The notes under the pieces were generated by a model, which saw only the letters and a program-made list of their open reading frames with translations, made no database searches and was not told the origin of the DNA. DNA of 52,254 bases from a virus (lineage: Duplodnaviria > Caudoviricetes). A program made the position numbers and the translations under genes. The stretch spans positions 1 to 52,254 of the IMG/VR virus record IMGVR_UViG_3300023184_000171. One strand, 5' to 3'. Position 1 is the first letter of the stretch, and each line of letters begins with the position of its first letter. Positions 2,695-39,900 of the stretch are shown here, one piece after another.

Positions 2695-5135
2695 TACGCA
2701 CTCTCCGGTGGGGTTTTTTTAACTTCAGCCATCTTTTTCTGATGCGCAAGCTGCTCGCGGTGCTTATTAAAATCAAGCGTCCGTTGATTTGTCTGGTGCC
2801 CAGACTGCTCTTTAGCTTTGGCTATCTCAACACCAACCTTCAACCCCGCAAGCTTCAGTTCCTCTTGTTTCGCCGCATTGTCGGCTTGGTCTTTAGCTGC
2901 TTTACGTTGAACCTCAGACTGTTTAATTTGAAGTTCCTGCTGCTGCATCTGCATCATCGGGTCTTGCTGGTTCTGCTGGGCTTGCTGGTTAGCCACCATC
3001 GCTTTACTCTGCGCTATAACCTGCGTGGCAGCTTGCGCAAGGAGCTTGGACAACTGGTATTCCATCTCCGGTGGCAAGCCCTCTTTAGAGTCTGGCAGCG
3101 GTGCGCCCAAGGCTTCAGACATTTTGTTACGGTATGCAAACCCAACGTGCTCCGCTATGTGCGCCATCATGGATGCTTGGATAGCCTGTGCTCGCGGGTT
3201 CTGCCCAATCAACTGTTGAATAATTGGGTCTTGCATAGCCGTGTTATGCACCACTATGTGCGACTCGTGGTCTTGGTATGCCACGGCTTTCACCGGTTTA
3301 CCTGCCAATACATTCTGGTTTTCTTGCACGGGGTCGGTTGGTTTTAAATCATCCTCGGTGGGCACAAGCTTCTCAATATTTTTAATGCCCAACACATGCA
3401 ACATCTGCCGATGAAGCTCTGGCATGTCGTATATCTGTGGTGACATCGCCGCCAGTTGCAGAACCGCCTGATACTGGACAACCCGCTGGCTCATCGTTGC
3501 CGCGTTCGGGTCAGACACCGGGATAATCTCTACGTGGCGGTAGTCTTCATATTTAGCGCTGCGGCCTTGCTCTCCGTCTACATCATACGGATATTCTTTA
3601 TTAGCTGGGCAATCCTCGCGCACTAGCTCTGCAATTAATTTTAACTCTTGCTTAAACGCAAAGTGAACCCGCGCCTGAACCGCTGACATAATCTTAAGGG
3701 TGCGTTCAAGAATAGCCAGCGTTGTCCCAACCGGGGCTTGCGCCGACATATCGGAAACCTTCATGTCCGCAGTTGCACCAAACCTGCGCCCGTCTTCTAC
3801 AATCTTATCCAGCAACCCCGCCAATACTTGACTTGGTTCCTTATAGGGAAGCATTAGAATGTTATCCCGTATGGCACCCGAACCAATATCTACGTCTCTA
3901 AACTCTCCCGGAGAAATTGGCGTGTCATCACCTTTTATGCGCATCCCACGGGTTTTCAATCCACCCGGAAGATTAGATAGCGTCCCAGCGTCTACAAGCT
4001 GGCGGATGATGCTGGTGGCACTTTTAGCAAAACCGCCAATCAAATGAAACAACCCAAACCCATACGCGCCAAAGCCGGGGATGTATTGATAGTGAACGTA
4101 GTGCAGCCGCTTCTGTTTTACTTTATCGCTTTCTTTCCAATTACGGCGTATAGCCAAAACCTGATTGCTACCTTCTACAAAAGTAACAATGTAAGGCCGC
4201 GCTATCCCCGTCGCATCGCCTTCTTTGTCGGTATCTTCAAACCCCGGCAAGTCCAAATCCGCGCAACATTCATTAATAACGTAGCGGTCATCATTTATTG
4301 GAGATACGCCAGTCTCCGTGTCTATCCGTTTCTGAATATCACTAACCGTCTTGGGCGGGTCACCAATTTCTACATCAAGCCAAAAGCCGTCGTATTGCAG
4401 CATCCGCACTTCGTTTTTATTCTTGCGCATACGGTGCGTAATGCGGGGGCATGTCAGAAGCTCGGATGTCCCGTACGGGAGAATAATATCTTCTGCCGTT
4501 ACAAACACCGAGGTCTGTCTGCCAAGGGCTGGGTCTTTATAAACTTTCTTAAAGGCAGACCCCGCTGCGGGGAGGCTCCACAACATCCGTTCATGCTCAG
4601 GACGGAACTCCACCATGTTCTCCGTCAACTGCCAATTCAAGTCTTCTGCCACACGCCCCGCTGCCGCGTCTTTCTCGATAGTCTGCTTCCCAACAATTTT
4701 TGTTTTAGCTGGCCCCGCAGCGGGGAACGTCTCCATGATTGTCTCTGATTGAAACCGAACAACCGCTTCCGTTATCATCGGATGAAACACTCCACACGCC
4801 CCTGACCACGGCTCCGTGCGTTCCTCGTATTTAAGACCCAGCAACTTAATGCCGTCCTTCATCATGCTCTCCCAATCCTTGCGGGAGCTAATGTCGTTCT
4901 TTACATCCGCCGCCAATTCAGACACCAACGTCTCCAAATCCCGCGCATCCATATACTCCGCGAGGTTAGCGTTGAAATCGTCAGAGCTTTCTTTACCGGG
5001 AGTTATCTCAATCTCTACCCCGTCCGCAGTAATTTTTACGGCTTCTGGGTCAACAATCTCTATCTCCATGTCCGACTGGTTCTGCTCAGCGTCCATCCCT
5101 TGCGGGGCTTGGTAGATACTTTTTTCCATAGCCAT
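2694..5135 (-). CDS. Portal protein
   Basis: 813 aa, downstream of terL; PWSGACGVFHP, GSAFKKVY and YGFGLFHLIG motifs; Q-rich coiled-coil C-terminus as in P22-like portals. Confidence 0.85.
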   Translation of the reverse strand: MAMEKSIYQAPQGMDAEQNQSDMEIEIVDPEAVKITADGVEIEITPGKESSDDFNANLAEYMDARDLETLVSELAADVKNDISSRKDWESMMKDGIKLLGLKYEERTEPWSGACGVFHPMITEAVVRFQSETIMETFPAAGPAKTKIVGKQTIEKDAAAGRVAEDLNWQLTENMVEFRPEHERMLWSLPAAGSAFKKVYKDPALGRQTSVFVTAEDIILPYGTSELLTCPRITHRMRKNKNEVRMLQYDGFWLDVEIGDPPKTVSDIQKRIDTETGVSPINDDRYVINECCADLDLPGFEDTDKEGDATGIARPYIVTFVEGSNQVLAIRRNWKESDKVKQKRLHYVHYQYIPGFGAYGFGLFHLIGGFAKSATSIIRQLVDAGTLSNLPGGLKTRGMRIKGDDTPISPGEFRDVDIGSGAIRDNILMLPYKEPSQVLAGLLDKIVEDGRRFGATADMKVSDMSAQAPVGTTLAILERTLKIMSAVQARVHFAFKQELKLIAELVREDCPANKEYPYDVDGEQGRSAKYEDYRHVEIIPVSDPNAATMSQRVVQYQAVLQLAAMSPQIYDMPELHRQMLHVLGIKNIEKLVPTEDDLKPTDPVQENQNVLAGKPVKAVAYQDHESHIVVHNTAMQDPIIQQLIGQNPRAQAIQASMMAHIAEHVGFAYRNKMSEALGAPLPDSKEGLPPEMEYQLSKLLAQAATQVIAQSKAMVANQQAQQNQQDPMMQMQQQELQIKQSEVQRKAAKDQADNAAKQEELKLAGLKVGVEIAKAKEQSGHQTNQRTLDFNKHREQLAHQKKMAEVKKTPPESA

Positions 5136-6899: not shown

Positions 6900-7512
6900 C
6901 AGCCTCTTCCGGCACAATCTCAACTAGCTCCGGGGGAACATCGTTGGCTTTACCCTCCACGACTTTCATCAAATCCATATACTTATCCATCCGGGTTTGG
7001 ATTTCTTTTTCCAAATCGCCGTCAGACAGCGCGGCTTTTTTAATTTCGATGCGTTCCGTAAACAGCGCCACTTCCGTTACCTTGCCTAGAACCTCGATTG
7101 CGCGGAGGCGTATCTTGGCGTCGGGGTGTTTGGATTCTTCAAGCAGTTGGGCGATACAGTAACCCCGTATCTCTTTAGCTTGTTCTACAAAAGCCCAGTC
7201 ATATGCAGTGAGCATCCCGACAAGATGCTGGACAGCTTTTGGAACCGTAACTTTAGTGAGCGCTTGCTTTTGGGTTTCCGCGTCAAGCGGTATGGTCATC
7301 GCGGCAAAGGCGTCTTGCGCGGATTTCTGTTGGGCGTTGGTGATTGTGGCGTCATCATCGAAGCCGAGGTCTTTTAACCACGCTGCGGTGGTTGTCTTCC
7401 CGTCCACAATATCGGCGGGAGGAGCCGTAGCATCCGCCACGAACTGCGCGTCATTTGATAGCACACTGGGCGCGTAGTCCGCATCTTGAATGCTAATCAG
7501 GTGTTCGAACAT
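6883..7512 (-). CDS. Probable terminase small subunit
   Basis: 209 aa directly upstream of and overlapping terL; helical RLRAIEVLGK...LFTER motif; SD GGAG. Confidence 0.6.
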   Translation of the reverse strand: MFEHLISIQDADYAPSVLSNDAQFVADATAPPADIVDGKTTTAAWLKDLGFDDDATITNAQQKSAQDAFAAMTIPLDAETQKQALTKVTVPKAVQHLVGMLTAYDWAFVEQAKEIRGYCIAQLLEESKHPDAKIRLRAIEVLGKVTEVALFTERIEIKKAALSDGDLEKEIQTRMDKYMDLMKVVEGKANDVPPELVEIVPEEADASPA

Positions 7513-7543
7513 TTAACTCCGCGCTTAATAAGCGAAAAACGGG

Positions 7544-7572
7544 TTTACTCTTTGCCCAATGTAGAATACACT
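7544..7572 (+). promoter_or_regulatory. Sigma70-like promoter for the predicted small RNA
   Basis: TTTACT (7544-7549), a 17-nt spacer, then TACACT (7567-7572). An alternative -10, TAGAAT, lies at 7562-7567. Confidence 0.5.
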
Positions 7573-7574
7573 AC

Positions 7575-7645
7575 AAGCTCCTTCGTTGTGAAGCGCTTTT
7601 TAAGCGCCCTCCAAACAGCCCCACCTCCTCCGGGGCTGTTTTTTT
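7575..7645 (+). ncRNA. Predicted trans-acting antisense small RNA against phage ribosome-binding sites
   Basis: Bounded by a promoter and a terminator. The 5' seed at 7577-7594 is complementary to the RBS regions of several plus-strand genes. Internal hairpin GCGCTT/AAGCGC (7593-7607) and three CTCC-containing anti-SD motifs. Confidence 0.6.
7613..7645 (+). terminator. Intrinsic terminator
   Basis: AAACAGCCCC-ACCTCCTCC-GGGGCTGTTT stem followed by a T-tract. Confidence 0.75.
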
Positions 7646-7861
7646 GTCTACTTATGTATAAGATTAGACAAGGGGGCTGAAATCCGTATTTAAATCCCTA
7701 GATGTAAAAAATTAGACATTAGACCTCTATTTTTGGCAATATGGTTCAAGAATAGTGTTCCCGCCAAGCTGCCTCGCCGCCCCGCCAAAAGGGTTGCCCC
7801 GCCCCCGGTGGGGTTCCGCTACCCCGTTGCGGGGCTAATGGGGAGTTACCAAAACGTGTTA

Positions 7862-7870
7862 TGGTATAAT
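7862..7870 (+). promoter_or_regulatory. Extended -10 promoter for the early operon
   Basis: Perfect TGnTATAAT (TGGTATAAT) about 80 nt upstream of the first plus-strand gene. Confidence 0.65.
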
Positions 7871-7952
7871 GTAGTTGTCGAATTGCTTCACGCCGTGGGG
7901 CAGCGACGCAGTAGGTGTGCATCACACACCTATCCACAAAAAGGAAATACAA

Positions 7953-8342
7953 ATGAACAAACAGCAAAGCAATTGGGTCACGATGCTCGGCAATTTGATT
8001 GCCGCCAAGAAAGACCACGCCGTGGCGTTGCGCGGGTTGCTCGCGCACCACGACAACAAACGGACGCTTGCGTTGGTGCAAGACATCGTGACGGGCTTGC
8101 GCATCGCGTTCCCGCAGACGGACGCTTGTGAGGGGGTTTACGCCGGGCAACCGACGGTAAGCTTCCCGAAAAAGGGAAGCGGGTTCCAGTTCTACCGCGA
8201 CGAGATTGCGGGGCTGTTGCCGAAGCTGCGCAAGAGCACGTCGTCGAAGCGCAACACCGTTGACCCCGTCGAAGCCGCTATCAAACGGCTTCGCAGCAGC
8301 TTCACCACCGCGCAGCTTCGCCGTATTGCCGCCGCGTTGTAA
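7953..8342 (+). CDS. Early hypothetical protein
   Basis: ATG at 7953 with SD AAGGA; 129 aa (MNKQQSNW...). Confidence 0.7.
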   Translation: MNKQQSNWVTMLGNLIAAKKDHAVALRGLLAHHDNKRTLALVQDIVTGLRIAFPQTDACEGVYAGQPTVSFPKKGSGFQFYRDEIAGLLPKLRKSTSSKRNTVDPVEAAIKRLRSSFTTAQLRRIAAAL

Positions 8343-8464
8343 TCGGCGGCTTCAAAGTTAGGTGTGTTCGGCACACCTAATTGTTAGACATTTTTCCACG
8401 GGCGTTGCTCGTGGGCGCGATGGGGGCGGCGCTATTCTGCCCCCGCTTGTTTTGGAGAAACACA

Positions 8465-8644
8465 ATGAGGTTCGGGATGTATCACGCAGAGACGGGCGCA
8501 CACCGTGAAGCGACTTGCTTCACACAGGCGCTCGATATGTGGCAGAACGCGCCACGCAGCGCGGGCACATGGGTGCTCGTTGTAGACGAGGTTGAGGTGG
8601 ATTCGGCGTATACCGCCGAGACGCCCAACAAGTGGGGCGAGTAG
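8465..8644 (+). CDS. Early hypothetical protein
   Basis: ATG at 8465 with SD GGAG; 59 aa. Confidence 0.6.
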   Translation: MRFGMYHAETGAHREATCFTQALDMWQNAPRSAGTWVLVVDEVEVDSAYTAETPNKWGE

Positions 8645-8741
8645 TCCCGCACTCGTGCGCCGTGACAGGGCGCACTGTGGGCGCGATTGCCCGTAACCTT
8701 AGGTGTGCATCACACACCTAATCACAGAGAGGAACAGCAGT

Positions 8742-9014
8742 ATGAAAAGGTACAAGCAACTCTTAGAGGACTACTACGCTGCGCTGGCGTGGCTGCACCT
8801 CGACTTCGCTGCGGGGGTAGACGACAACCTCGCATACATGAACACCCTCGTCGAGCGGGTGGGGGAATTGGAGTTGACGGATGACGAGTTGGACAGGCTC
8901 GACATGGCGTGGTCTATCAGCGAAAAGCTGAATGACTACTGGGATTTTGACATGGCGCTCTACCATATCGAATACATAGTCAGTTACCGTAACCACCTGA
9001 AAGGAACAGCATGA
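8742..9014 (+). CDS. Early acidic hypothetical protein
   Basis: ATG at 8742 with SD GAGG; 90 aa, D/E-rich. Confidence 0.65.
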   Translation: MKRYKQLLEDYYAALAWLHLDFAAGVDDNLAYMNTLVERVGELELTDDELDRLDMAWSISEKLNDYWDFDMALYHIEYIVSYRNHLKGTA

Positions 9015-9166
9015 AAGCAAAAGCTTGCACCACAACCGCGCCCCGATTCTGGGCATTACTCGTAGAGGTGAAAGCCTCTATGAACCCCGCGCTTAAGAAC
9101 GCGGAGATACCGCAACGAACCACGCTCACCGCACTACAGCGCCACCACGCCGCGAGGCGCACATGA
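9011..9166 (+). CDS. Small hypothetical protein
   Basis: ATGA overlaps at both ends, SD AAGGA; 51 aa (MKAKACTT...). Confidence 0.5.
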   Translation: MKAKACTTTAPRFWALLVEVKASMNPALKNAEIPQRTTLTALQRHHAARRT

Positions 9167-9303
9167 AATCTCTGATGCTAATTAGCTTCACGGGTTGGGC
9201 GGGTCTCTCGCTCAGCTTCCTCATACCAGAGGGCATGTGGCTGTGGCTTGCCATCTTCGGGGCATCCTGCTTCGGCCTATCGGCGGCGGTGATATTGGAC
9301 TAG
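9163..9303 (+). CDS. Small two-TM membrane protein
   Basis: MKSLMLISFTGWAGLSLSFLIPEGMWLWLAIFGASCFGLSAAVILD; ATGA-coupled, SD GAGG. Confidence 0.55.
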   Translation: MKSLMLISFTGWAGLSLSFLIPEGMWLWLAIFGASCFGLSAAVILD

Positions 9304-9451
9304 CACAACTCGCTGACAATCTGTCAGCGAGTTACCTGCACTGCGGCGTGGCACGACTCCTCACCCCCACGCCGCAGCAGTTAGGTGTGCTGTTCACACC
9401 TAACTAATTAGGTGTGCTGTTCACACCTAATCGTGAGTTACCATAACTCAC

Positions 9452-9840
9452 TACCAAAAAGGTCAATTGGACAATAGTCCACTATGTCCGGCATTTTTAG
9501 GGGTAGATGGGCGTAACTTTGTTCAATCAAATCAGGTAAGTCAGCGTCCACCTGTCCGGGATGCCCACATATATATATCCTTTTCCTTTTCTATATATAT
9601 AAGCAGCAACAAGTGGACGCTGGACTTGTCTCTCGCTTTGTCTTTTTCTTTTTCTTTGTTCCTTGGAAGTTAAAAAGACAAAAAACACGTAGACAGTGGA
9701 GACGCACACGCGCTAACCCCATGATGTTGTATACTGTATGCCCTGTCCACGAGCACACAGATTTGCCGGACTATTTCGTAATAAGTGGACTATTTTAGTT
9801 TTCCACGCCCCATTTCCCGGCATTTAGGTGGACTATTTTC
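9452..9840. other. Candidate replication origin or other cis-acting non-coding region
   Basis: AT-rich core (about 9568-9690) with (AT)n and T-tracts; GGACTATTT at 9768, 9787 and 9830 with an inverted copy at 9473; several GTCCAC/GTGGAC hexamers. Confidence 0.45.
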
Positions 9841-9859
9841 GTTACGGAGGGATAAAGCC

Positions 9860-10390
9860 ATGAACAAATACTGCCACACCTGCAAGAAAACCAAGCTGTT
9901 TAGGTGCTTCCGCTACACCTCGCAGCAGACACCCAACGCCGTGCCGCGCCGTCTATTCGGGCGTATGTGCAACGCTTGCCGCACCGCAGCGCTACTCAAA
10001 GACGAGCGCAAGCTGGAGACCGCCATCCAACGCGGCGAGGTTGGGCACGTTCAAGGAACGCTACTCTTGCAGAAGATGCGCTCCGAGGCTGCAACCCGCA
10101 AAGCCGAGTATCGGGCGCAGCAAGTTGAGCGGGCACTGGAGACGCATCGGCTGGGGCGTTACCTGACCCGTGAGTGCAACCTGCACAAACGCTCAACGGC
10201 TGAACTACGCGCAGCATACGAACTCGACCCCGCCGAGGCGCAAGCATACGAGGCGCACTACGCCGTGAAGCTGGCAGAGGGCAAGGATAAGTATGCGCGG
10301 CTCAAGGCGCGGGTAGCTAAGGGTGACCGCAAAGCCATCATCCTCTACGCCAGCCTAGACAGGGGGGAGGGAACGGTCACCCCGCGCTAA
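9860..10390 (+). CDS. Zinc-ribbon (CxxC...CxxC) basic protein
   Basis: SD GGAGG; CHTC...CNAC N-terminal motif; R/K-rich helical remainder. Confidence 0.65.
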   Translation: MNKYCHTCKKTKLFRCFRYTSQQTPNAVPRRLFGRMCNACRTAALLKDERKLETAIQRGEVGHVQGTLLLQKMRSEAATRKAEYRAQQVERALETHRLGRYLTRECNLHKRSTAELRAAYELDPAEAQAYEAHYAVKLAEGKDKYARLKARVAKGDRKAIILYASLDRGEGTVTPR

Positions 10391-10549
10391 CCACGCACGA
10401 CTCACCCCCCGCATTAGGTGTGCGCTTCACACCTAATTAGGTGTGCGTTTCACACCTAAACCAAACTTGCTGACATTTTGTCAGCGAGTTACTTGCTGAC
10501 ATTTTGTCAGCGAGTTATAGCACTACGTTTCACAACAAAGGAGAACCAC

Positions 10550-10750
10550 ATGAAGACGAAGAAAGTAAACCTGCGCACCATCCTCCGCGTGTCGGCCACC
10601 AACACCAAGTTTGGCTTGGTCAAGCGCATTGCCTACGTGCAAGGCAGCAACAAGAACGAGGCGCACTTCATCCACACCAGCAACGCCGACAACACCTGCA
10701 TCACTATCAAGCGCATCCCGAAGTGGCGCAACGCAAGCATCTATAACTAA
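10550..10750 (+). CDS. Small basic hypothetical protein
   Basis: ATG at 10550 with SD AAGGAG; 66 aa. Confidence 0.65.
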   Translation: MKTKKVNLRTILRVSATNTKFGLVKRIAYVQGSNKNEAHFIHTSNADNTCITIKRIPKWRNASIYN

Positions 10751-10760
10751 GGAGAAACAC

Positions 10761-11123
10761 ATGGACAAGATATCGAACTCGGTAGGGAAGGAAATCGCGG
10801 GGGTCACGCTGCTTGACAGCAGGTTGCACTTCGTCTTCACGGACAAGACGGAGATATACGTGGTTGATGACGGGCAGTCTTGTTGCGAGATGCGTTACAT
10901 GACCACGGACGACGAGTTGGATTCGTTTGTTGGGGCAAAGCTCCTTGGGCTGGAGGTTAAGGACGCGCCGTATGCGAAGGCAAGGTGTGAGGATGATGTG
11001 CATCAGGTGCAGTTCCTTGAAATACAGACGAACAAGGGTGTGTTCACGATGGCAAACCACAACGAACACAACGGGTGTTACGGTGGGTTTTACATTACGG
11101 TAGAGGAGAAACGACATGAGTAA
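10761..11123 (+). CDS. Conserved-type phage hypothetical protein (SCCE...HNEHNG.YGG)
   Basis: SD AAGGAG; the QSCCE.RYM and NHNEHNGCYGGF motifs recall a widespread phage family. Confidence 0.7.
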   Translation: MDKISNSVGKEIAGVTLLDSRLHFVFTDKTEIYVVDDGQSCCEMRYMTTDDELDSFVGAKLLGLEVKDAPYAKARCEDDVHQVQFLEIQTNKGVFTMANHNEHNGCYGGFYITVEEKRHE

Positions 11124-11574
11124 TAAATTGGACTGGACGAAGACGAATGCCGTGTGGAATGGCGAGGACTGGCTGTTCTACGAGGTGCCGCTGGAGGCTT
11201 GCCCTAACTGGGGCGGCACAACCTGCTTCAGTCGAAGTGAGTTGAACTACGAGGGTGACGACCCCGTTAAGGCGGTGGTTGCGCTGAGGTATTGGTGTGA
11301 CCACGGGGAGTCGCAGCCCAGTGAGGACTACCTTGACACTAGCGTTTTTGAGTTGCCGCTACTAAGCGACAGGTCTTCGCGCTTGGACAAGAGGGTGCTG
11401 TTGCGTAGTGCCGACATGATTGTAGTAGATTTTTGGTATGTGATGGGCATCAGCAGCACCTACTACGGCACCAAGATGCAAGCAGAAGTGGAGGCGCGTA
11501 AAGCGTTTCCAAATGAGGATGCGGGTAAGCGGTATGCCCGTGTGTTTTATAAAACGTTTTATCAGGAGGTATGA
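11116..11574 (+). CDS. Hypothetical protein
   Basis: 152-aa ORF with SD GAGGAG, overlapping the previous gene. Confidence 0.6.
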   Translation: MSNKLDWTKTNAVWNGEDWLFYEVPLEACPNWGGTTCFSRSELNYEGDDPVKAVVALRYWCDHGESQPSEDYLDTSVFELPLLSDRSSRLDKRVLLRSADMIVVDFWYVMGISSTYYGTKMQAEVEARKAFPNEDAGKRYARVFYKTFYQEV

Positions 11575-13345: not shown

Positions 13346-13669
13346 ATGAGTATGAAAACGAGTGAACTGCAAGGTGCTGCCCTTGATTGGGCGGTAGCGA
13401 AGTGCGAGGGAATTACTTTAGGGGTTGTGTATTACTTCCAACCATCAACAGATTGGGCACAAGGTGGCCCGATCATTGAGCGGGAGGAGATCAGCATTAC
13501 CAATGAAGCGGAGGGAAGATGGATCGGGGCTATTGATAACCCTGAAGCTGGTGGAGAATGGGACTGGCGCTGGAATCGGGTCGGCCCCACCCCACTCATC
13601 GCAGCCCTGCGTTGCTACGTTGCAAGCAAGTTGGGCGATGAGGTTGAAATCCCAGAGGAGTTGAAATAA
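13346..13669 (+). CDS. NinX/DUF2591-like phage protein
   Basis: L.GAALDWAVAKCEG, PSTDWAQGGPIIEREEI and GPTPLIAALRCYVASKLGDEVEIPEEL are family hallmarks. Confidence 0.8.
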   Translation: MSMKTSELQGAALDWAVAKCEGITLGVVYYFQPSTDWAQGGPIIEREEISITNEAEGRWIGAIDNPEAGGEWDWRWNRVGPTPLIAALRCYVASKLGDEVEIPEELK

Positions 13670-14667
13670 TGAAACGCTTACAAGCAATGCTGACCTACTG
13701 CCGTCCACACGGGGGTGAGGGTGAGAAGCAGTTCGTCAAGAGGTTCATCAAGCCATACAAACCGCTTGCCATGCTGGATGACAAGGGTGAGGTGATGGCG
13801 TGGTGTGTGCGGGTGGGGGACGCGCCTGTCCTGTGGTCGGGTCATGTTGATACGATGCACAAGCCCGATGCACCCGCTAAGCAATCAATCGTCTATGACG
13901 AGGGATGCGGCATGATTTACAAGGACGACAAGGTGATGCCGCTGGGTGCTGACAATGGCGCGGGTGTCTGGCTGATGCTGGAGATGCTGGATGCGGGTGT
14001 GCCGGGGACGTATCTCTTCCATCGTGGTGAGGAGCGCGGGGGTATCGGGTCGGGTGGCATAGCGAAGCACCACGAAGCGTTCCTCAAGCCGTTCAAGTAT
14101 GCCATCGCGTTCGACAGGCGGGGCACGGGGGATGTAATCACTGAGCAGATGTGCGGGGTGTGTTGCTCAGATGAGTTTGCGCTGGCACTCGCGGCACTAC
14201 TCAATACCAACGTGGCTATGGACTACAAGCCCGACAACACGGGCAGCTTCACTGACACCGCGAACTACATAGGCATCATCCCTGAATGCACCAACGTGAG
14301 CGTAGGGTATGACAACGAGCACACGCCCAACGAGACGCTGGATGTGTGGCACTTGATGCAGTTGCGCGATGCCGTGATAGCGGTCTTTAAAGCTGGCATC
14401 AGTTTGCCTGTGGTGCGCGACCCCAGCATAGTGGTAGACCGGTGGGGTGGCTTCGGTAGCTTCGGGGATAACTACGACTACCCGTTGTGCGCGGCAGAGG
14501 TGTTGGATATGCCGTTCAAAGACCTCATCAAGCTGGTGAAGACGACTCATCCAGAGGACATAGCGGAGTTGCTACTGTCACTGGCAGAGGAGGCAAGTGT
14601 AGCGGGGGCAGTGGAAGCAAACGATTCACAATACATGGAGAAAGATTATGCGCGGTATAGATATTGA
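13669..14667 (+). CDS. Zn-dependent M28/M20-like peptidase
   Basis: Metal-ligand motifs GHVDT, LGADN, GEERG, AFDR and C-terminal NEHT. Confidence 0.85.
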   Translation: MKRLQAMLTYCRPHGGEGEKQFVKRFIKPYKPLAMLDDKGEVMAWCVRVGDAPVLWSGHVDTMHKPDAPAKQSIVYDEGCGMIYKDDKVMPLGADNGAGVWLMLEMLDAGVPGTYLFHRGEERGGIGSGGIAKHHEAFLKPFKYAIAFDRRGTGDVITEQMCGVCCSDEFALALAALLNTNVAMDYKPDNTGSFTDTANYIGIIPECTNVSVGYDNEHTPNETLDVWHLMQLRDAVIAVFKAGISLPVVRDPSIVVDRWGGFGSFGDNYDYPLCAAEVLDMPFKDLIKLVKTTHPEDIAELLLSLAEEASVAGAVEANDSQYMEKDYARYRY

Positions 14668-15732: not shown

Positions 15733-16851
15733 ATGCAAGCACCTATGCTGTCGCATAAGCAAGTCTATTCACTCATCAAAGCGGTGGGTAGGAAGAGAAC
15801 GGTCATCGTGCAGGGGGAGACGGGCGTTGGTAAAACGTCCATCCAGATGGAGTTTATGCGTGACCCCGACTTTGCCAACCACCACGTTCGCCGCCCGTTG
15901 GAATGCACCCAGATGTCCGATGGTTCAGTATGGATGCCCGACATTGACCGAGAGTTGGGCGTGTCCCGCGAGTTGCCCAACGAGCGCTTCCACATCAACA
16001 CCAAGAACCGCAAGGGTGTGGACGGTTCCAAGCCGGTAGTCATCTGTCTGGATGAAGTGTTTAAGGCAACCAACCCGGTCAAGTGCATGATTTCCCCTGT
16101 GCTATATGAGCGCACCGTGGGTGACTATGAAGCCCCGGATGGCAGCATCGTGTGGGGTGCCACTAACCTAGCGGCTGAAGGGTTGGGGGACTCCCTCAAG
16201 ATGCACCTGCGCACACGCATGAAGATTGTAACCATGCGCAAGCCCACTCAGCCTGAATGGGCGAACGACTTCGCCATCCCCAACGGCCTACACCCTGCCG
16301 TTATCGCAGCCACCGCGCTGCATCCCGAGTGGTTCGACTCGTTCATGGACTACGAGCCGGGGGGTAAGCATGAGGGCAAGACGCTGGCTAAGGAGAATCC
16401 CTGCATCAACAACCCGCGCTTGGCACAGGAGGGCATCGTCAGCCCGCGCACACTGCACTCAGCCAGTGACTCGCTGCATGAGGCGCACAACATGGACAAG
16501 GAAACCCTGTTGGCTGACTTGTGTGGCACGGTGGGGGTTACGGCAGGGCAGATAGTTATGTCGGTCATGCGTCTGGGTAACGACATACCCGCACCGGAGC
16601 GTGTGTTTGCCGACCCTGACAACACACCGCTCTCTAACAATGCCAGTGCGCAAGCATTGCAGGTGTTCCAGTTGTTTAACCGCGCCACCACACGCGACGA
16701 TATGGCGGCTGTCGTGCGGTATGTTCGCCGGATGCGCACCGAGATGCAGACCATCTTTCGCCATAGCGTCGAGCATTCAGTTAAGAACCCTGTGTTCTCC
16801 ACCATCGCTGAGTTTCAGGTGATGTTGCAGGACGCTAGGTTGTTCGTATAA
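15733..16851 (+). CDS. MoxR-type AAA+ ATPase
   Basis: Walker A GETGVGKT, Walker B ICLDE, sensor ATN and SPRT; adjacent to a vWA gene. Confidence 0.85.
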   Translation: MQAPMLSHKQVYSLIKAVGRKRTVIVQGETGVGKTSIQMEFMRDPDFANHHVRRPLECTQMSDGSVWMPDIDRELGVSRELPNERFHINTKNRKGVDGSKPVVICLDEVFKATNPVKCMISPVLYERTVGDYEAPDGSIVWGATNLAAEGLGDSLKMHLRTRMKIVTMRKPTQPEWANDFAIPNGLHPAVIAATALHPEWFDSFMDYEPGGKHEGKTLAKENPCINNPRLAQEGIVSPRTLHSASDSLHEAHNMDKETLLADLCGTVGVTAGQIVMSVMRLGNDIPAPERVFADPDNTPLSNNASAQALQVFQLFNRATTRDDMAAVVRYVRRMRTEMQTIFRHSVEHSVKNPVFSTIAEFQVMLQDARLFV

Positions 16852-16857
16852 GGAGGC

Positions 16858-18030
16858 ATGATGATTCCAAACCATACGTGGGAGGTAATGACGTTGCAGC
16901 AGAGGGTGTCGGCTTGTAACAGCGACATCATTGAGCATCCAGAGTTTGGGCGGTTGACGGGCATCGTGTTCATGGGCGAGGTCATCATCGACCCCGCTTG
17001 CCCCACCGCCGCAACGAATGGGCGCGACGTGCGCTACGGAGAGAAGTTCTGTAGCAAGCTGAACCAGAAGCAACTGCGCTACGTTGACCTGCATGAGAAC
17101 TTGCACAAAGGCTTGCGGCACTGCGTCTTATACAAAGCTATCGTGGAGAAGTATCCAGACGAGTCTAACCGTGCGCAGGACTACGTAATCAACGGGATGA
17201 TTGAGGAAGTTGACCCGGCGTTTCAGTTCGTTGAGCGCCCGTGTGCTGTGCTGGTGGATGTTAAGTATCAGGGCATGGGGTTCATAGAGGTGTTGAAAGA
17301 CCTGATAGCTAACCCACCGCCACCCAACGGTGGGGGCAGCACGTTGGATGAGCATGAGCCGATGGATGAAGCCCCTGAGTTGGGCGACGAGATAGAAGAC
17401 GCGCTACGTCAAGGCAAGATTGTGTCTGACCGCATACGGGGGGAAGCTGGCGAGAGCGGTGCGTTGGATGTGCTGCTGCGCCCACGTAGCACGGCGTGGC
17501 GAGAAGCTATGCTGGAGTTCATGCAGTCTGTGTGTGACGGGGATGAGTTGAGCCGCATCTGTCCCCCGAACAAGCGCTTGCTACCTTCCGGGTTCTTGAT
17601 GTGGTCGCATTACTCAGAGGCGGTGGGGGAAGTAGTCATCGCGGCGGACACATCAGGGTCGATGCGCGGCGTGTATCCGGTAGTGTTCGGAGAGATATCG
17701 CACATATGCCAGACGTTGATGCCTGAGTCAGTGCGGGTTATCTGGTGGGACAGTCAGGTTCGTGGCGAGCAGGTGTTCACGCCTGATAACTATGAGGCGA
17801 TAGGTAGTTTAATGAAACCAGAAGGTGGTGGTGGCACTCGCGTGTCTACTGTTGCCGACTACATACAGGAGAAACAATATGCACCGATAGCAGTGATATA
17901 CCTGACAGATGGATACATCGAGTCTGAATACCGCACCCCTGCACTGCCGATACTGTGGGGGGTTGTAGACAACACACGGTTTGTGCCGCGTGTTGGTAAG
18001 AAAATAGACATTTGCAGCTTCACAATCTAG
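16858..18030 (+). CDS. Metallopeptidase-like plus vWA domain protein (DUF2201-like)
   Basis: TAATNG and HENLH (HExxH) in the N-terminal half; MIDAS DTSGS, GGGGT and LTDG in the C-terminal half. Confidence 0.85.
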   Translation: MMIPNHTWEVMTLQQRVSACNSDIIEHPEFGRLTGIVFMGEVIIDPACPTAATNGRDVRYGEKFCSKLNQKQLRYVDLHENLHKGLRHCVLYKAIVEKYPDESNRAQDYVINGMIEEVDPAFQFVERPCAVLVDVKYQGMGFIEVLKDLIANPPPPNGGGSTLDEHEPMDEAPELGDEIEDALRQGKIVSDRIRGEAGESGALDVLLRPRSTAWREAMLEFMQSVCDGDELSRICPPNKRLLPSGFLMWSHYSEAVGEVVIAADTSGSMRGVYPVVFGEISHICQTLMPESVRVIWWDSQVRGEQVFTPDNYEAIGSLMKPEGGGGTRVSTVADYIQEKQYAPIAVIYLTDGYIESEYRTPALPILWGVVDNTRFVPRVGKKIDICSFTI

Positions 18031-33812: not shown

Positions 33813-33972
33813 AACCCCGGTGTGGGGTAGCTTCTTCGTGCCAACGCTGGATGTATACGCAACGAAAGAGACAGGGCTGAAGGTAGCCCTGCATCTTCGC
33901 ATCAAAGGTAAAACAACTTTCGGTCTATACAAAGGCAAGCACGGCGTGTTGTTTACGCGGCTTTCCGTATGA
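33775..33972 (+). CDS. Small hypothetical protein
   Basis: YPW....GSFFVP...GVLF.R motif; last plus-strand gene; overlaps the 3' end of the convergent giant gene. Confidence 0.6.
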   Translation: MPKKIRIYYPWNETPVWGSFFVPTLDVYATKETGLKVALHLRIKGKTTFGLYKGKHGVLFTRLSV

Positions 33973-36900
33973 TGTCGCGGTATAGTTTAGCCGTATCTAT
34001 CTGCTCTTTGCGTAACTGGTCTATGCGGTTGCGCTTTTCGCGGGGCGAAAGATCAGAAGCTTTAACTTCAGTTATGGCATCGGTTGACTGTTTCATATCT
34101 TTTTTAAAGTCCCCGTAACTGGTGCCAATTGAAACCCGTTGCATATTAGCGTTGAGATACGCTTCGGCTTCAGCGGGGTTACCATCCGCGTACAGTTTGT
34201 TGTAGGTATTAACCGCCCGCTCACCGTCCTGCATCAACTCATAAGTGCGGTTGATGATACCGCCAGCGTCGTTTGGCTGAAACGCGCTACTAAAGAACGC
34301 AACTTGGGAAGCTTTCTTTTCAGCCTGTTGCACTTTAGGGCTTGCAATAAACGCATCAGCCAGTGACACAGCAGACAGCAACGTTTGTGCTCCAACGCCT
34401 TTTATAAATTGATCCACTTTAACTGGCGATACCCCCGGAATGCCCATGCTGCCAAGCACCTTTGCCAGTTCAGTTGTTGTATCTTTATACCGTTGCGCAG
34501 GGTCAAGGGACTGCATACGAGCAGACTCAACATCTGCGCCGGTAAACAAGTCTTTACCGGTTATGCTTTCAACAACCGGCACAAGGAATTGCGGTATGCC
34601 CTTGCTGGAACCGCCCGGAATCGCGTTAATACCCAACTGCACCAACGCTTGCGCAATGGGCGCTACGTCGCCATCTCCAGCTACAGAATTGTAAATGGCT
34701 TCCGGTACGGCTTTAGCCAGTAAACCGAACTCAAACGGAATTGGTATCTTAAGCGGTTCATCAAACCCCGGAACACGCACAAACCAGTTGTTAAGTTTTT
34801 GCTCCGGTGTGGCGTTCTTGTAGGCTTCGTCGTCTTCCATCGCCATCGCATACATAACCGTAAACGCAGCCATTGCCACAACCCGTTGCTTAAACTTTTC
34901 TTGAATCTTTAAGCGCTCGTTGTAAGGCATATTGCCCGTCATGGCTTTAACAAACACACTCAAGCCTTGTATCTGCGCGTTAAAGAACGGATACAACGTA
35001 TTGGCCCATTGCACCGAAGGGGATACACCGCGCCGATTAAAATCTGTAATTTCATTGGCGGCTACCCACGCCTCCATTTCGTTCAAACCCTGCTTGATGT
35101 AGCTGTTGTAAGCAGACAAACGCACACCGACATCAGCCTCCATGCTCTTGGCTTCAGCATACGCAAGCAATCCTGATATTGACTGCTTACCACTAACAAC
35201 ACCGCGCAAAACCGTAGACAGCGCTTCTTTGCTGCTTCCGGCAAGAACTTGCCCGCCCAGCAACCCTTGGCTTTCAAGCAACGCAGCTTCGCGGCTGGTG
35301 CCAGTCAACGATTTATATATGTTTTTAAAGGGGTCAACAATCGGTATAAAGTTAGCGCCACTGGTTCCCAGCGCAGAAAACGAATCTTTAACAACCTGCC
35401 GAAGCGGATACATCGGACTCAAAATAACAGCGCGGCGCAGGAACTGCGCAGGGAGGCCCATAAGTTCCAGCGCCTTGGGCATTGTAGTTTTAACGCCTTC
35501 CAGCCCTTTGACCAATAGCGTCGGCGGGATACCTTCAAACATCGTATCGTTTGTGTCTTTTACGCGCACCGCAATATCTTCGCCGTCTTTTCTAAAGCGA
35601 ATAACATTAGCGCCTTTATGCGCATCCGAAATTTTAAAGTCTTCTTTTTGTTCCCCGGTTTTTTTGTCTTTATATTTACGAGTTTCAAGCATGTTGAGCT
35701 TGCGCAGTGTATCCACAACACTACCCGTTGCAATGTTACGCAGCGCCATGTCTGTCAGCAGGTTTGTGTTCTGCACCGCGCTGGTAAAGATGTTACTGAT
35801 CGCAGTGTCACCACCCACCAAACCGTGCAAATGCGGTTGGTCTGTTAAATTTCCAACAATAATCGGACTTGATTCACTGCCCAAAATCAATTCAATTTCA
35901 CCGCTAGGGTTTTCCCGGTAGAAAGGAATGTAGTCTTTGGTAGCGCGAAGAGCATCAGCTTTTTCTTTAGAAAGTGCCCCCGCTTGTTCGGCAAAATCAA
36001 CCAGCCCTTTGTTGTATTCGTTGTATATACCCCGCGCTTTTTCAAATGCAGTATTAACTCTGGGCATTGCCGCAATCTCGCGCTCAAATTGTTGCAGCTT
36101 AGCCCCGGTCAATACTTGATTGCCGTTCTTGTCTTTACCAAAATTTAATTTATCAACGCCAATTTTCTCGTTCTTAACCCGCTGCGCTGCCATATACATG
36201 GTAAACATATCACCAGCATCTTTTTCAGCAAGACCTGATTCACCTATAGCTTTAAACACCTTAACAAGATTAGCGCCGTCCTTGTTCTTGGTTTCAACCA
36301 TCCAATACTTGTTAGCACCAGTGCCTTTTTGTTTGTATTCAAGAGCGCCGTTTGCCGCAACCAACCGCGTAAAGTTCATTATCTTGTCACGCGCACTCAA
36401 GTCATAACGCACTTGGGACGCTTCCAAGTCTGTTATCTTTTTGCCAGCAACGCCTTTTTTAAGCGCCGCCCAAACGGGCGCATACCGGTCTACAAACTGG
36501 GTCATGCCAGCCAAACCCATTACGTTGCCGCGTATCTCGTCAATCTTAGACCTGTCCTGCGCCACTACCGTGTGCATCATAGCCCACGATTCCGCGCTCA
36601 TACCTGCGGGGCGTGGGCCTTCCTTGCTTCTAAAAGCAATTGTGCCATCGGGGGATACGTAGGCACCCAGCCGCCCCGCTGCCAAGTTGCGTGACGACTC
36701 ACGGATCAACGCTTGGATTTCTTTAGCATCACGCTTTGCCATCTCCGACAGACCGGAGTTGCGGAAGTAACTACGCACCGCAGCAACCATGTCCCGCACA
36801 AAGGTCTTAACCTTCTCGGTAAAGGTGGGCGCAACACGACGCCCCTCGGCAGCGTGGGCAACCATCTCGCGCACAAGTGCCATTTTAATGGCTTCTCTAG

Positions 36901-39900
36901 AGTCTACTTCTTGCGTGGTTGTTTCTTGGGTTTGTGTTTCGGTCTGTTTATTTTGAAAATTTGCCAATTTTACAATGTCCGCAACAGCAACGTCGTATGC
37001 GCGTTTTAAATTAGCCGTTAATTTTTCTACGCCATGCGTTTTGATAGCATCTTCTATATATTCTTCAGCTACCCAATTTTCTCCTTGGTTATCCCACGCG
37101 TTGTAAATGTCTTCACCAGCAATAGCGTGTATTTTAGTATGTAAAATGTCATTAGCTTGTTTCTGTAAATTAGCTGGTATCACCGTAAGGACACTACTAA
37201 CCCATTTTTCACTGGCATCCCATACATCGTACATGTTATCAATAGCATTTTCTGGGGTAATACTGCTAAAAGCTTTTACCAAATTGGTAGGCATAACGGG
37301 CGTTGCCATAGCCGCTGCCGCGCCTTTCAGCAATTTTCTACGTGTCAAATCAACTTCTGGGCGGGTGTATCCCAACGCTGCCAGCGCGGTCTCAACGTCA
37401 GGGAACACGCCCAGCGCCGTAGCAACGTCTGCTACGTGCGCATCGCCCTGCTTGAACAGCCGGTCAACCAGCGCTTGCATACCGTCTTTACCAATGATGG
37501 TATCTACGCCGTAGTGCCCAATCAACTCGTGGGCAAACGTTTCTTCAAGGTCAGCAAGGGTCTTGTGCGCCTCGCCTATGATGACAACGGTGCCGTCAGG
37601 CATCACAGCGCCTTTGGCAGAAGTAACACCATCTTCAGCCATTGCATCGCGTAACGCTTGGGGGGCATCGGCCAATGTTGGGGCGTATACAACCTCTACC
37701 CCTTTGGGCAGGGCTTTCTTAATCCGCGCCGCCACGTCCGCTGCGGCTTTGGCGTCAACACCACGGTCTTGTTCCGTGGCTTCGCGGTAGTCTGTCTTAG
37801 TTTTACGACCAGTTTTAGAGGTGGTTACTTTTCCGGGAGTTTTTTCTTTGTCTGGAATACCAAAACGCATACGAGGAGGCACACCACGACCCGACACTTC
37901 ACGATCCCCAATTACTACGCCAGTGCGAATTACTTCTTGTAAATTTTTTTGGCTTTTTTCAGAACTTTGATACAACTCTAAATTTATATTGTTAGCTTCA
38001 GCGTCTTCTATAATTTTTAAAAGCTTGTTTCCCACCGCATCTTTTTTAGACTGCACATACGCCATGTTTGCCATGAACTGCTCAGACTGCTGTTTTTTAG
38101 CGGCAATCTTTTTAAGCGGCGCTAACTGTTTATCTATAGCTTCGTACGCAATCTTGGTTTTTCTATAATTGCTTGGCAGCAACGACAGCTTGCGTTCCAA
38201 AGCTTCGGCTTTAGATTTTTGCGTAGGAGTTTCAGAAACGGTTGAAACAACTTCACGAGAAACGTTTATGTGCAAACGCTCTTCAAGTCTTGCTATCTCA
38301 TCAAGGATAGCGCCGCGCCGGTTTTCAAGCTGTATTTTCTTAGGCGTATTTGTTTCTGCGCCAGCGTAGGGGTTTAGCTGTTCAGTATTCCCCGTAATGC
38401 CTACGGCTTTAGCTATTATACGAGCGCGACTACGCAAGTCTTTTATACGTTTTTCAATAGCCGCAATTTCTGTTCCCGGCAAACCCCCTTTAACTGGAAC
38501 TAGTTCAGAAACAAAAGTGCGAGTGCCGGTAACATAGGGGGCCAAATCTTTAGCAACGCTATCCGACAGGCCATCCTCAAAAACTTTGGTATTTTTTAAT
38601 ATGGTTTCTATGGTATTTTTATGCGCTTTGTATTTTTCAGTTGCCCGCGCTATTTCGCTTTCAGTTTTTAACTGTATTATGTATTTTTCTAAACGTGTTA
38701 ATAAAGCACGTTCTTGTGCTAGTTTTTTATTATTTTCAGCAATGAATTGAATATACTTTTGCCGCGCTTTTTCTTCAATGCTTTTAGCTTTTGCAACCTG
38801 CGTATCCGTCAATTTTACAAAAAACTTAGAATTTTTTACAGAGCCTATAGCTCGTTTTAAACTACGAAGCGATTTAGCTAAAGCAAAACCGCGTTTCGTA
38901 TTGGCGTTAATAAGAGCTTCAATTTCCATCCGCGTTTTAGACACTTGCCCACGCAGAATATCTATATCCTTAGATACTCTATTTTTTATTTCTTCTTGCA
39001 CTTCTATATTTTGTTTCAGTGTAAGGGCTTTTTCTTTTGCTTTACGTGCAGCTTCAAGTTTTGCCGCACGAGTCTCTTCCGCTTTTTGTTGTTTAAGATT
39101 AAAAGCTTTTTCTTTGCGCAATCTTTCAAATTGCGCAGGAGTTTCCCTAGAAACAGAAGTTAACTTGCTGGGAAACAGATTTTTTTGTTTAGAAGTATCT
39201 TCTAAAGCTTGCCGATTAAGCGCCAATGCATCTTGTAGCGCTTGGGCATCCACTTCCCTACCCATAACAACGCGATCCGCCAAATCCGTGGCTGCTTCAA
39301 TTGTTTGGGCAGTTCCACGGCCTTTTTCAAGCAACCCCTTTGCTTCCCGCATAGCTGCACGAACGCCGGGGGCCATTACCTGCTCACCTAAAGCGGCGGT
39401 TAATTTGTTGAGTGCGTACGAACTTCCTTCTGCACGAGATGTTTCAGCAGCTTCGCTTTGCGGGGCAAGCCCAAACGGAATTATTTTACTTTGGGGCCGT
39501 GCTTTTTTACCAACAAGGGCCTCTACAAAATAATCAATCCCGCGCTGTAATTTTGCTAACTCTCCGGTTCTTTTATCAGAAATTGTCATGCCGCGTTCAA
39601 TGGGGCCAGCAGCAACTTTTTGTTGCATTGCCGTAAGCGTTTTTGTTAATTGTGTAATCTCTAATTGCTTACGGCGTATGGCAATCGTTGCCTCCATATT
39701 AGGAGGCGCTTTACTAGCGGCCTCTTTCATGGCGGCAAGTTCATTTTTTAAACGCAGTAGTTTATCCCCAAGTTTAAAATACGCTTCTTTTAACGCCCCA
39801 TGCATTACGCTGCTGGCGGGTGGTTTACCTTTTTCCGCAAGGGCTTTAAATTTGGTATTTATTTGTGTAACTATTTTATTTTTTTGAACATCGGACAAGG

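Follow-up and report, generated by a model that had tools for sequence, protein, structure and literature searches.

Phage-private palindromes and a matching first early protein: a candidate operator array in an uncultured freshwater podophage clade

Introduction

Lambda Cro, the product of the first gene in an early operon, is a small dimeric protein that binds palindromic operators and lowers early transcription. Stoperators are asymmetric sites, bound by a monomer and distributed genome-wide, that serve lysogenic immunity. In boxB-type recognition, binding depends on the loop of the hairpin, a GNRA-like pentaloop. Hairpins are also the promoters used by the injected virion RNA polymerase of N4-like phages. 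The repetitive extragenic palindromic (REP) sequences and bacterial interspersed mosaic elements (BIME), which go with REP-associated tyrosine transposases (RAYT), are short perfect intergenic palindromes, sometimes arranged in doublets and uniform within a genome. The present work concerns a set of perfect palindromes lying between the first early genes of a tailed-phage genome (Duplodnaviria; Caudoviricetes), the IMG/VR virus record IMGVR_UViG_3300023184_000171. This record, estimated 82% complete, was analysed over its full length of 52,254 nucleotides and is hereafter called the window.

The palindromes are proposed to be the window's version of a clade-wide system in which each phage possesses private sites and a matching first early protein, the product of gene 1. 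What we infer is that the protein binds the sites, does so on DNA and thereby regulates: the palindromes would be double-stranded operator-like sites for a dimer of this protein, a regulator of the early operon. This reading is held tentatively, its chances falling a little short of even.

Palindromes of the early region

The first family, class B, is made of two invariant arms of 8 bp around a spacer that is 5 nt long in all seven copies and free in sequence, TAGGTGTG-N5-CACACCTA. Exact copies start at 7912, 8359, 8700, 9382, 9409, 10415 and 10438, with the successive loops CATCA, TTCGG, CATCA, CTGTT, CTGTT, CGCTT and CGTTT (five different in seven). Six of the seven are extended to TTAGGTGTG...CACACCTAA, arm length reaching up to 9-11 bp. 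Every copy is intergenic relative to the likely genes of the window. The chance expectation is 0, as the pattern gives no match in 100 dinucleotide-preserving shuffles, and no extra copy appears in the 52,254 bases even with three mismatches allowed. An earlier note, made from the sequence alone, had described seven fixed-arm palindromes with these loops, all intergenic and confined to a 2.6-kb stretch; both statements are confirmed. The two tandem doublets that it placed at 9381/9408 and 10414/10437 are real as well, with start-to-start distances of 27 nt (B4/B5) and 23 nt (B6/B7), but these coordinates are one base low. Class B sites and gene 1 are arranged as follows.

7912..7932: B1 (site 1), class B, in the leader, 20 nt upstream of the gene 1 ATG at 7953
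7953..8342, + strand: gene 1, 129-aa basic protein (isoelectric point, pI, 10.4) of type B, proposed binder of the class B palindromes
8358..8380: B2 (site 2), class B, 16 nt past the gene 1 stop at 8342
8699..8721: B3 (site 3), class B, 21 nt upstream of the ATG at 8742
9379..9431: B4 + B5 doublet, class B, after the stop at 9303, at the end of the first gene block
10413..10459: B6 + B7 doublet, class B, after the stop at 10390, past the Zn-ribbon gene

A second family in the same stretch, class A, was absent from the earlier note's list. It reads AACT[C/T]GCTGACA-N3-TGTCAGCGAGTT and has three copies in the window, at 9307, 10464 and 10490. Its core form, CT[C/T]GCTGACA-N3-TGTCAGCGAG, starts at 9309, 10466 and 10492, with 0.02 matches expected by chance.

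9307..9333: A1, class A, AACTCGCTGACA-ATC-TGTCAGCGAGTT
10464..10516: A2 + A3, tandem class A, 26-nt period

All window palindromes, seven of class B and three of class A, lie inside 7912-10516. Folding energies of the copies lie between -12 and -22 kcal/mol (z-scores -3.5 to -6.5). The T-tract of an intrinsic terminator, taken as at least 4 T in the next 6 nt, follows only one of the seven class B copies of the window. The seven palindromes are real, non-random and something other than an ordinary terminator set.

Gene 1 types and the class of the sites

Relatives of the phage were retrieved via the terminase, giving 110 stretches, of which 80 loci were kept. The earlier note had advised scanning related phages for the motif, and they indeed carry class A or class B palindromes at the same intergenic places as the window. 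Which class is found there goes with the type of gene 1. Type B genes belong to the window, L021, L024, L032, L035, L036 and L037, and all seven of these phages have class B at site 1. Type A genes were found in 15 distinct phages (L009, L010, L011, L013, L015, L019, L023, L025, L027, L028, L031, L395, L398, L399 and L402), in all of which site 1 or site 2 holds a palindrome of the class A frame; no crossed case occurs. In this count, the duplicates L014, L016, L396/L397 and L400 were counted once, and L022, cut by a contig end, was dropped. When independent viral records are selected with a perfect class A palindrome as sole criterion, 13 of 15 encode a type A homologue (E <= 0.01).

Because sites 1 and 2 flank gene 1, the match between class and type at these two places could be linkage. 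Sites up to 2.5 kb from gene 1 nevertheless have the same class as those flanking it. The closest relative of the window by terminase, L009 (97%), has a type A gene 1 and class A sites, so the window has changed its gene type and its sites together, including sites 0.4-2.5 kb off.

Homology between type A and type B proteins starts at about residue 50 and extends through the C-terminus (hhalign probability 96.5%, E 8e-10); their N-terminal ~55 residues are unrelated. The type B family counts 16 representatives at E <= 0.001 among 1.84 billion proteins. The gene 1 protein has no Pfam or PHROG match, and searches of PDB sequences came back empty; Atlas look-ups for both types return only unnamed viral clusters (scores 0.85-0.86).

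An AlphaFold model of the window protein has a mean predicted local distance difference test (pLDDT) value of 88. Predicted in two copies, the protein forms a symmetric homodimer with a score of 0.85, compared with 0.01 for the best of 3 controls; contact agreement between runs is at least 98% and partner pLDDT at least 88. The mark for a homodimer is reached by 20 of 30 proteins solved as same-chain pairs and by 1 of 23 solved as single chains, counts that are only roughly valid here, since the run used its own 16-row alignment. The predicted interface consists of helix 1-32 and helix 121-129. As it contains the N-terminal helix, the type-specific N-terminal module would be the dimer interface, and the segment that follows the barcode (described below) lies outside it.

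Barcodes and their turnover

The middle of the arm constitutes a phage-specific "barcode", uniform inside each genome, where 4-10 identical copies stand in the intergenic spaces of the early operon. The class B word is GGTGTG in the window, GATGTG in L021 and GGGGTG in L024, L032, L035, L036 and L037, single copies of the latter also occurring in L019 and L031. As the GGGGTG frame is common in relatives, the window word amounts to a both-sides change of a known frame. In 23 distinct class B sequences, six core pairs are never broken and two pairs are changed on both sides, while 20 different loops occur across relatives. Inner words of class A are GCTGACA (L009), GTAGAC (L013), AGGGACA (L010), GCGGACA (L011), AGTAGCA (L015/L016) and ACCTGA (L019). 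Searched in all viral contigs, the class A frame gives 105 matches, 34 of which have all four free inner pairs complementary and add the words GCAGACA, ACAGACA, GTGGACA, GTGTACA and TGTGACA. The exact class B motif has 4 matches in 2.9 million viral contigs, all single-copy and unrelated. Classes are mixed in the window (seven B and three A), and both are present in L019 and L031.

Judging from the alignments, palindromes are gained, lost and replaced precisely in situ. Site 1 is of class A in L009, L010, L011, L013, L015 and L019 and of class B in L024. B2 is positionally orthologous to the class A sites of L009, L011, L013 and L016. Site 3 is of class B in the window and of class A in L013, and it is absent from L010, L011 and L015. 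The left flank of B4 + B5 is homologous to the left flank of class A sites in L010 and L015, and the right flank of A3 is also kept at class A sites of L011 and L015. Between the window and its relatives, alignment breaks off at 7909/7910 and picks up again at 8383, indicating that gene 1 and both flanking palindromes were swapped as a block; at other sites, the palindrome alone differs and the flanks on both sides are homologous. In a natural variant from a drinking-water run, X5, site 1 differs from the window over 7908-7932 and resembles class A; one contig of this run joins 10406 to 10491, so that B6, B7 and A2 are missing from the variant. The earlier note had listed recombination sites among possible roles, and this part of the idea stands, with palindromes gained, lost and replaced in situ and the gene 1 block exchanged, but only this part. 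Copying also takes place within a genome: B3 has the loop of B1 together with a shared 14-nt flank (right flanks 89% alike), and B4/B5, B6/B7 and A2/A3 are near-identical pairs.

L010 and L015 are near-identical over long stretches, and all four palindromes that they share are changed alike, GGA becoming TAG with the mirror change in the other arm. Differences affect 37 of 100 palindrome columns vs 203 of 2205 flanking columns.

For type A proteins, co-variation with the barcode was scored over the eight residues that follow an invariant GQRG motif. Barcodes and residues pair as follows.

GCGG: ..PRDSA, in L011 and L395-397 (the latter only ~50% identical to L011 overall)
GTGG: TRDSA, in L511
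GCTG: PRNSA, in L009
GCAG: GRGTA, in four records
ACAG: GYGNK, in three records
GTAG: PAGSA, in L013
AGGG: PQDSN, in L010
AGTA: PQGSN, in L015

Of 13 lineages with G as third barcode base, 7 have Asp as the sixth residue; none of the 7 other lineages does. Of 13 lineages with G (in one case C) as first base, 8 have Arg or Lys as the fifth residue; none of the 5 lineages with A does. Pairing of Arg with G, Gln with A, Asp with G:C and Asn with T:A is the pattern of direct read-out on duplex DNA. These counts are suggestive of a segment of the type A protein that changes jointly with the barcode.

Other elements of the early region

The palindromes are accompanied by several further elements.

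7862..7870, + strand: extended -10 element TGGTATAAT, candidate early promoter, with a putative transcription start near 7877
7874..7909, + strand: conserved leader with its own stem-loop, ending in GCGACGC just before B1
8381..8455, + strand: composite element before gene 2, with TTAGACA/TTGACA, a stem-loop and a terminator-like G+C-rich hairpin GCGCGATGGGGGCGGCGCTATTCTGCCCCC with a T-rich tail
8644..8698, + strand: 55-nt non-coding element directly upstream of B3
9433..9451: extra 8-bp palindrome, GTGAGTTA-CCA-TAACTCAC
9452..9859: non-coding control region, A+T-rich in its core, where ATAGTCCAC is present as three exact boxes

The early promoter assumed in the earlier note finds a counterpart in TGGTATAAT, conserved in all relatives inspected, but a simple -35/-10 scan of the window did not call it. 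This element and the 35-nt leader 3' of it are conserved in L009, L010, L011, L013, L015, L016 and L019, and its sequence marks it as a putative host-type early promoter. In L019, the leader stem is maintained by changes on both sides, as judged by eye, and in relatives reaching the early region a palindrome follows GCGACGC at a fixed place. In the composite element, present in both type A and type B phages, pairing of the stem-loop is preserved despite sequence changes, and a terminator-like site is called at 8421-8445. With 96-98% identity, the 55-nt element recurs in L010 (two copies), L011, L013 and L015, though behind different genes, and it looks like a mobile or structured intergenic module.

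The control region holds all ATAGTCCAC copies of the window, exactly three, at 9474 (+), 9785 (-) and 9828 (-), together with a TATACT -10-like hexamer near 9733, and may be a second early/middle promoter or an origin. One metatranscriptome run yields three short contigs, at 9081-9117, 9626-9659 and 9750-9932; such contigs do not define the ends of transcripts and may stem from DNA carry-over, and the last of them is a weak sign of transcription in the region. An Rfam search of 7400-11000 found nothing credible, and no tRNA was found in the window.

Proposed regulation and alternative readings

If the palindromes are duplex operators, host RNA polymerase would start at the conserved extended -10 promoter and gene 1 would be made first. 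Its product would pair as a symmetric homodimer on the duplex palindrome, one subunit per arm, and each subunit would read the phage-specific middle of its arm. The dimer would then occupy the site ~36 nt downstream of the transcription start and the intergenic sites, which are doubled at the ends of two gene blocks. With one site at about +36 and the others between early genes, the most likely effect would be autoregulation or shut-off of early transcription via blocked elongation, like that of Cro and stoperators. Its own word and its own reading residues would insulate each phage from co-infecting relatives and from host factors targeting the word. The free spacer, the invariant arms and the symmetric dimer together favour a duplex site. 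The earlier note had already preferred a dimeric-protein site to a hairpin, and this is the best-supported reading on account of the class-type link, the co-variation and the predicted homodimer. The candidate proteins that it named, a helix-turn-helix protein (30455) and the Zn-ribbon protein (9860), find no support: neither has a family match, and L010 and L015, which differ at all their palindromes, have nearly the same Zn-ribbon gene.

Several observations weigh against operators for a gene 1 dimer. The protein model matches no DNA-binding fold among known folds (best Foldseek E-value 1.0, best VIA-align Z 4.5), which is no evidence that such a fold is absent. The fixed geometry described earlier holds for all seven window copies, but relatives mix 5- and 6-nt spacers inside single genomes (L024, L031, L013), which a rigid dimer bound to B-DNA should accommodate poorly. 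Nearly all copies show perfect symmetry over 8-12 bp, which is more than usual for natural operators and suits intrastrand pairing. Three perfect class A sites are found in the window without a type A protein in the 82% of the genome covered; these sites could be leftovers or could serve a co-infecting phage of the L009 type. The gene 1 proteins of L010 and L015 are identical in their N-terminal half and differ by only 4 residues (D66G, K71S, A77G, S111A), yet every palindrome differs; the first three of these changes fall inside or just after the barcode-following segment. Co-variation itself has exceptions (L398, L023, L027 and long variants of 197-222 aa) and draws on ~20 lineages that are not independent, and it is for these reasons only suggestive.

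An unlikely but serious rival keeps the same gene 1 dimer and gives it an RNA target, either stem-loops of the nascent transcript or an unpaired 5' arm, so as to control termination, read-through or mRNA fate like lambda N/nut or a hairpin-specific antiterminator. The layout does resemble lambda pL-nutL-N-tL1, i.e., a promoter, a leader hairpin, a small basic first gene (pI 10.4) and, ahead of gene 2 at 8421-8455, a terminator-like G+C hairpin ending in a T-rich tail, and all copies stand in transcribed spacers of a one-direction operon and fold stably. Core pairing intact in all 23 class B sequences, both-side changes at two pairs and perfect stems of up to 12 bp suit RNA, and the 5/6-nt loop variation is harmless to a hairpin. 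By eye, a T-rich tract follows site 2 in most relatives and none follows site 1. The tail AQRRRIRAAI resembles an arginine-rich motif; N proteins have theirs at the N-terminus, and the arginine-rich stretch of the gene 1 protein is C-terminal and is weak in the window (AQLRRIAAAL). Against an RNA target, the loops on which boxB-type recognition would depend are not conserved, a symmetric homodimer suits a two-fold duplex better than a single hairpin, and neither likeness to N in sequence or fold nor a boxA-like element is established. G.U pairs are not in excess over A.C: outer pairs comprise 29 G.T vs 37 A.C, without bias, and the variable outer pair of class B gives, by eye, 3 U.G vs 6 C.A. 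An early impression of a T.G excess, considered as a sign of RNA structure, was gone in the larger set. In class A, runs of at least 4 T follow 7 of 36 sites and runs of at least 4 A precede 9 of 36; in class B, the corresponding counts are 3 and 2 of 29, so that across the family there is no T-run excess after the sites and no strand asymmetry.

Other rivals dispense with a dedicated binder. Factor-independent structural hairpins (weak terminators, attenuators or protectors of mRNA ends), kept uniform by gene conversion and diverged under pressure from host spacers, would account for the copying between sites (B1/B3, B4/B5, B6/B7, A2/A3), for the mixed classes of the window, L019 and L031, for the hairpin followed by T5-7 in some relatives (e.g., L019, L395 and L398) and for host array spacers that match sites at 29 of 30 positions (next section), gene 1 being tied to them by physical linkage. 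This is improbable, as it leaves unexplained the joint change of protein segment and barcode, the type A gene of the 13 class A-bearing records and the class that distant sites share with gene 1, and as T-runs are scarce after the window copies. Still less probable are selfish or recombinogenic palindromes without regulatory role, such as miniature mobile elements or cassette-shuffling junctions of the promoter early stem-loop (PeSL) kind. Presence/absence and in-situ replacement with intact flanks, at site 3 and in the X5 variant, and the gene 1 cassette bounded by sites would be expected of them. Family searches of the window proteins revealed neither a transposase nor a RAYT-like gene, barcodes that differ from phage to phage would impede exchange, and the protein co-variation would have no explanation. 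Moreover, only B1 lies near a promoter, so the composite promoter-terminator layout of PeSL (PMC4122927) is not that of these sites. Hairpin promoters of the N4 type are scarcely credible. Hairpins do occupy the first-entering early region, and a giant virion open reading frame (33953-42556), coding for a 2867-aa protein, could have been the polymerase. This protein has no polymerase family match and none of the motifs D.DGD, R...K..YG, HDS and GDD, so the idea fails on that count, and a conserved host-type extended -10 promoter lies upstream of the first site.

An array of phage palindromes in bacterial genomes

In 185,579 genomes, at least 120 stretches match the class B frame, and each match listed is a single copy, with neither a host-wide repeat nor a mimic of a CRISPR repeat among them. 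One such match, on contig C185 of the betaproteobacterial metagenome-assembled genome G001, also matched a class A site of the window; the class A frame has one occurrence in the 4.9 Mb of G001. Decoy sites for a host factor, another role raised in the earlier note, find no support in these matches; rather, copies of the phage sites turn up in a locus of the presumed host. The locus is known in three copies.

L210 (G001:C185), 3130-3900: array of 800 nt of non-coding DNA, between an MNT-type nucleotidyltransferase gene and an AbiEi/AbiEii pair
L242 (G098:C39), 280-640: same locus in G098, sister genome of G001, cleaner array
L365, metagenome contig: same locus, cleaner array

The array consists of a 36-nt direct repeat with an internal stem and of unique 30-nt spacers, with an exact period of 66 nt and a degenerate last repeat. 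In G098, four identical 19-nt repeat cores stand at 354, 420, 486 and 552, and the period is 66-67 nt in L365. Array repeats differ from one another. G001 and G098 have one trailer spacer in common and otherwise different content. At least 7 of 14 extracted spacer units carry the class A or class B frame, a proportion that ordinary or random spacer sampling would not give, and most of the rest are palindromic by eye. Spacer sp2, AACTCAGGGACA...GAGTTTTC (AGGGACA), matches L010 at 29 of 30 positions, twice, and another AGGGACA spacer is offset from it by three bases. The GCTGACA spacer s1 matches the window at 9307 (25 of 28), s4 matches it at 10414 (20 of 22), and a GTAGACA spacer has 21 of 23 positions in common with L013. 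A longer unit contains AAGGACA and then TTAGGTGTG-CGCCG-CACACCTA, with the exact arms of the window. The array repeat also contains ATAGTCCAC, the word of the control region 9452-9859.

The 36-nt host repeat is absent from the 80 phage loci and from the window, and Rfam gave nothing credible on the array. No further array was found in 159 genomes of the family besides G001 and G098 or in a 401-genome sample of the order, and L365 is the sole array among the metagenome matches listed (119 stretches). A candidate second array locus, G001:C273, proved to be a chance match in coding DNA.

Regular 36-nt repeats, unique 30-nt spacers, content that differs between genomes and spacers that match phage DNA are features of arrays of clustered regularly interspaced short palindromic repeats (CRISPR). 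Unlike these, the array has no cas genes beside it in any of its three copies, its repeats differ and most of its spacers are palindromic by eye. The Cas4-Cas1-Cas2 locus of G001, the only cas locus found in that genome, has a different repeat; in G098, a cas1 locus is fragmentary, with no repeats nearby. RAMP/Cas6 was not found in G001 or G098, both genomes being incomplete. The array may be an orphan adaptive array biased to these sites, a decoy or sensor bank for phage proteins, or something else.

The array likely links the phage clade to a betaproteobacterial lineage as its host, and it offers a reason why barcodes are rewritten wholesale. A broader picture, speculative and on the whole rather unlikely, can be drawn: palindromes and first early protein would form a private lock-and-key under host attack, and the array, lying between two abortive-infection/toxin-antitoxin operons, would store several specificities (GCTGACA, GGTGTG, GTAGACA, AGGGACA, AAGGACA) as an adaptive memory or as a decoy/sensor bank. 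Phages would then escape by rewriting every site copy and the reading residues of the protein at once, which, if true, would represent a new kind of phage-host arms race over the operator code of a regulator.

The phage and its relatives

Genes of the window include a large terminase, a family A DNA polymerase, a primase-helicase, an exonuclease, a holin, an endolysin, a 913-aa ejection protein and the 2867-aa virion protein. The latter, encoded at 33953-42556 on the - strand and adjoining the ejection-protein homologue, matches only an LPD38 polyvalent-protein domain (residues 2576-2754) and one unnamed PHROG. In the replication block at 15733-18030, a MoxR-like ATPase gene is followed by one for a protein with VWA/DUF2201 metallopeptidase-like domains, and an M28-like peptidase and a NinX homologue are encoded at 13346-14667.

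No near-identical phage DNA was found among 50,697 phage records. The nearest cultured phages are HTVC023P-type pelagiphages and the lake phage DSL-LC04, with ~50% terminase identity; they are not syntenic in the early region, nor is DSL-LC04 syntenic upstream of the terminase. Contigs of runs X2 and X4 (7600-11200), from lakes of other studies, are identical to the window and broken exactly at the palindromes. Their identity points to a widespread strain, and such breaks are expected for repeats in short-read assembly. Six marine relatives (L050, L056, L063, L066, L073 and L075; terminase ~54%) have repeated palindromes of their own, AAAAACCC[CG]G[CG]-N4/5-...GGGTT, with at least 3 per locus, so genome-specific sets may extend to the marine branch.

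Comparison with known systems

The present results give an uncultured freshwater podophage clade, distant from cultured phages, a concrete and testable early regulatory circuit. A small protein family without known fold appears to read a short DNA or RNA word that close relatives rewrite in all copies, and if the pairing of residues with bases holds, the clade would offer a natural series of re-coded protein/nucleic-acid specificities. The host array further raises the question of how and why a bacterium collects phage regulatory palindromes. Searches of literature listings on HTVC023P and pelagiphages, or on palindromic spacers with CRISPR, brought up no description of such a system, supplementary files aside.

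As in the stoperator systems of Cluster A mycobacteriophages, many copies of a short phage-specific site stand in intergenic spaces; one phage protein, the immunity repressor, is proposed to bind them and stop elongation, with specificities that diversify between related phages (PMC9283540, PMC6550527). Here, unlike stoperators, the sites are perfect palindromes that occur only within a 2.6-kb part of the early operon, in a podophage that appears to be lytic, and the gene 1 protein, unlike the repressor, is a predicted symmetric dimer without recognisable helix-turn-helix. Cro operators differ in that the present sites are located downstream of the promoter and between genes, number 7-10 and have perfect symmetry, and sequence and structure searches show no likeness of the gene 1 protein to Cro.

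A phage-specific leader hairpin between the early promoter and a small basic first gene, followed by a terminator-like hairpin, is likewise found in the lambda N nut/boxB system, as is a modular protein with a swapped specificity part and a shared part (PMC2724277, PMC3526286). Unlike N/nut, the loops are unconserved here, the sites are many, the partner is a predicted dimer, no boxA is established and there is no homology. Repeated stem-loops among small early genes, at the borders of indels and gene replacements, are also described for the PeSL cassettes of T4-like phages (PMC4122927, PMC2839356). The palindrome copies of this clade, unlike PeSL, have no promoter, and each phage has a sequence of its own, linked to a single protein. 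REP/BIME elements differ from them again, since no host-wide copies were found (the class A frame being present once in the 4.9-Mb G001) and no RAYT was found.

By analogy, the system would thus work most like repressor-stoperator pairs and Cro, with an N/nut-like layout and a PeSL-like turnover, while failing the defining features of each of them. What is new within the theme of a regulator and its operator array is the concerted re-coding, together with an unexplained counterpart in the host.

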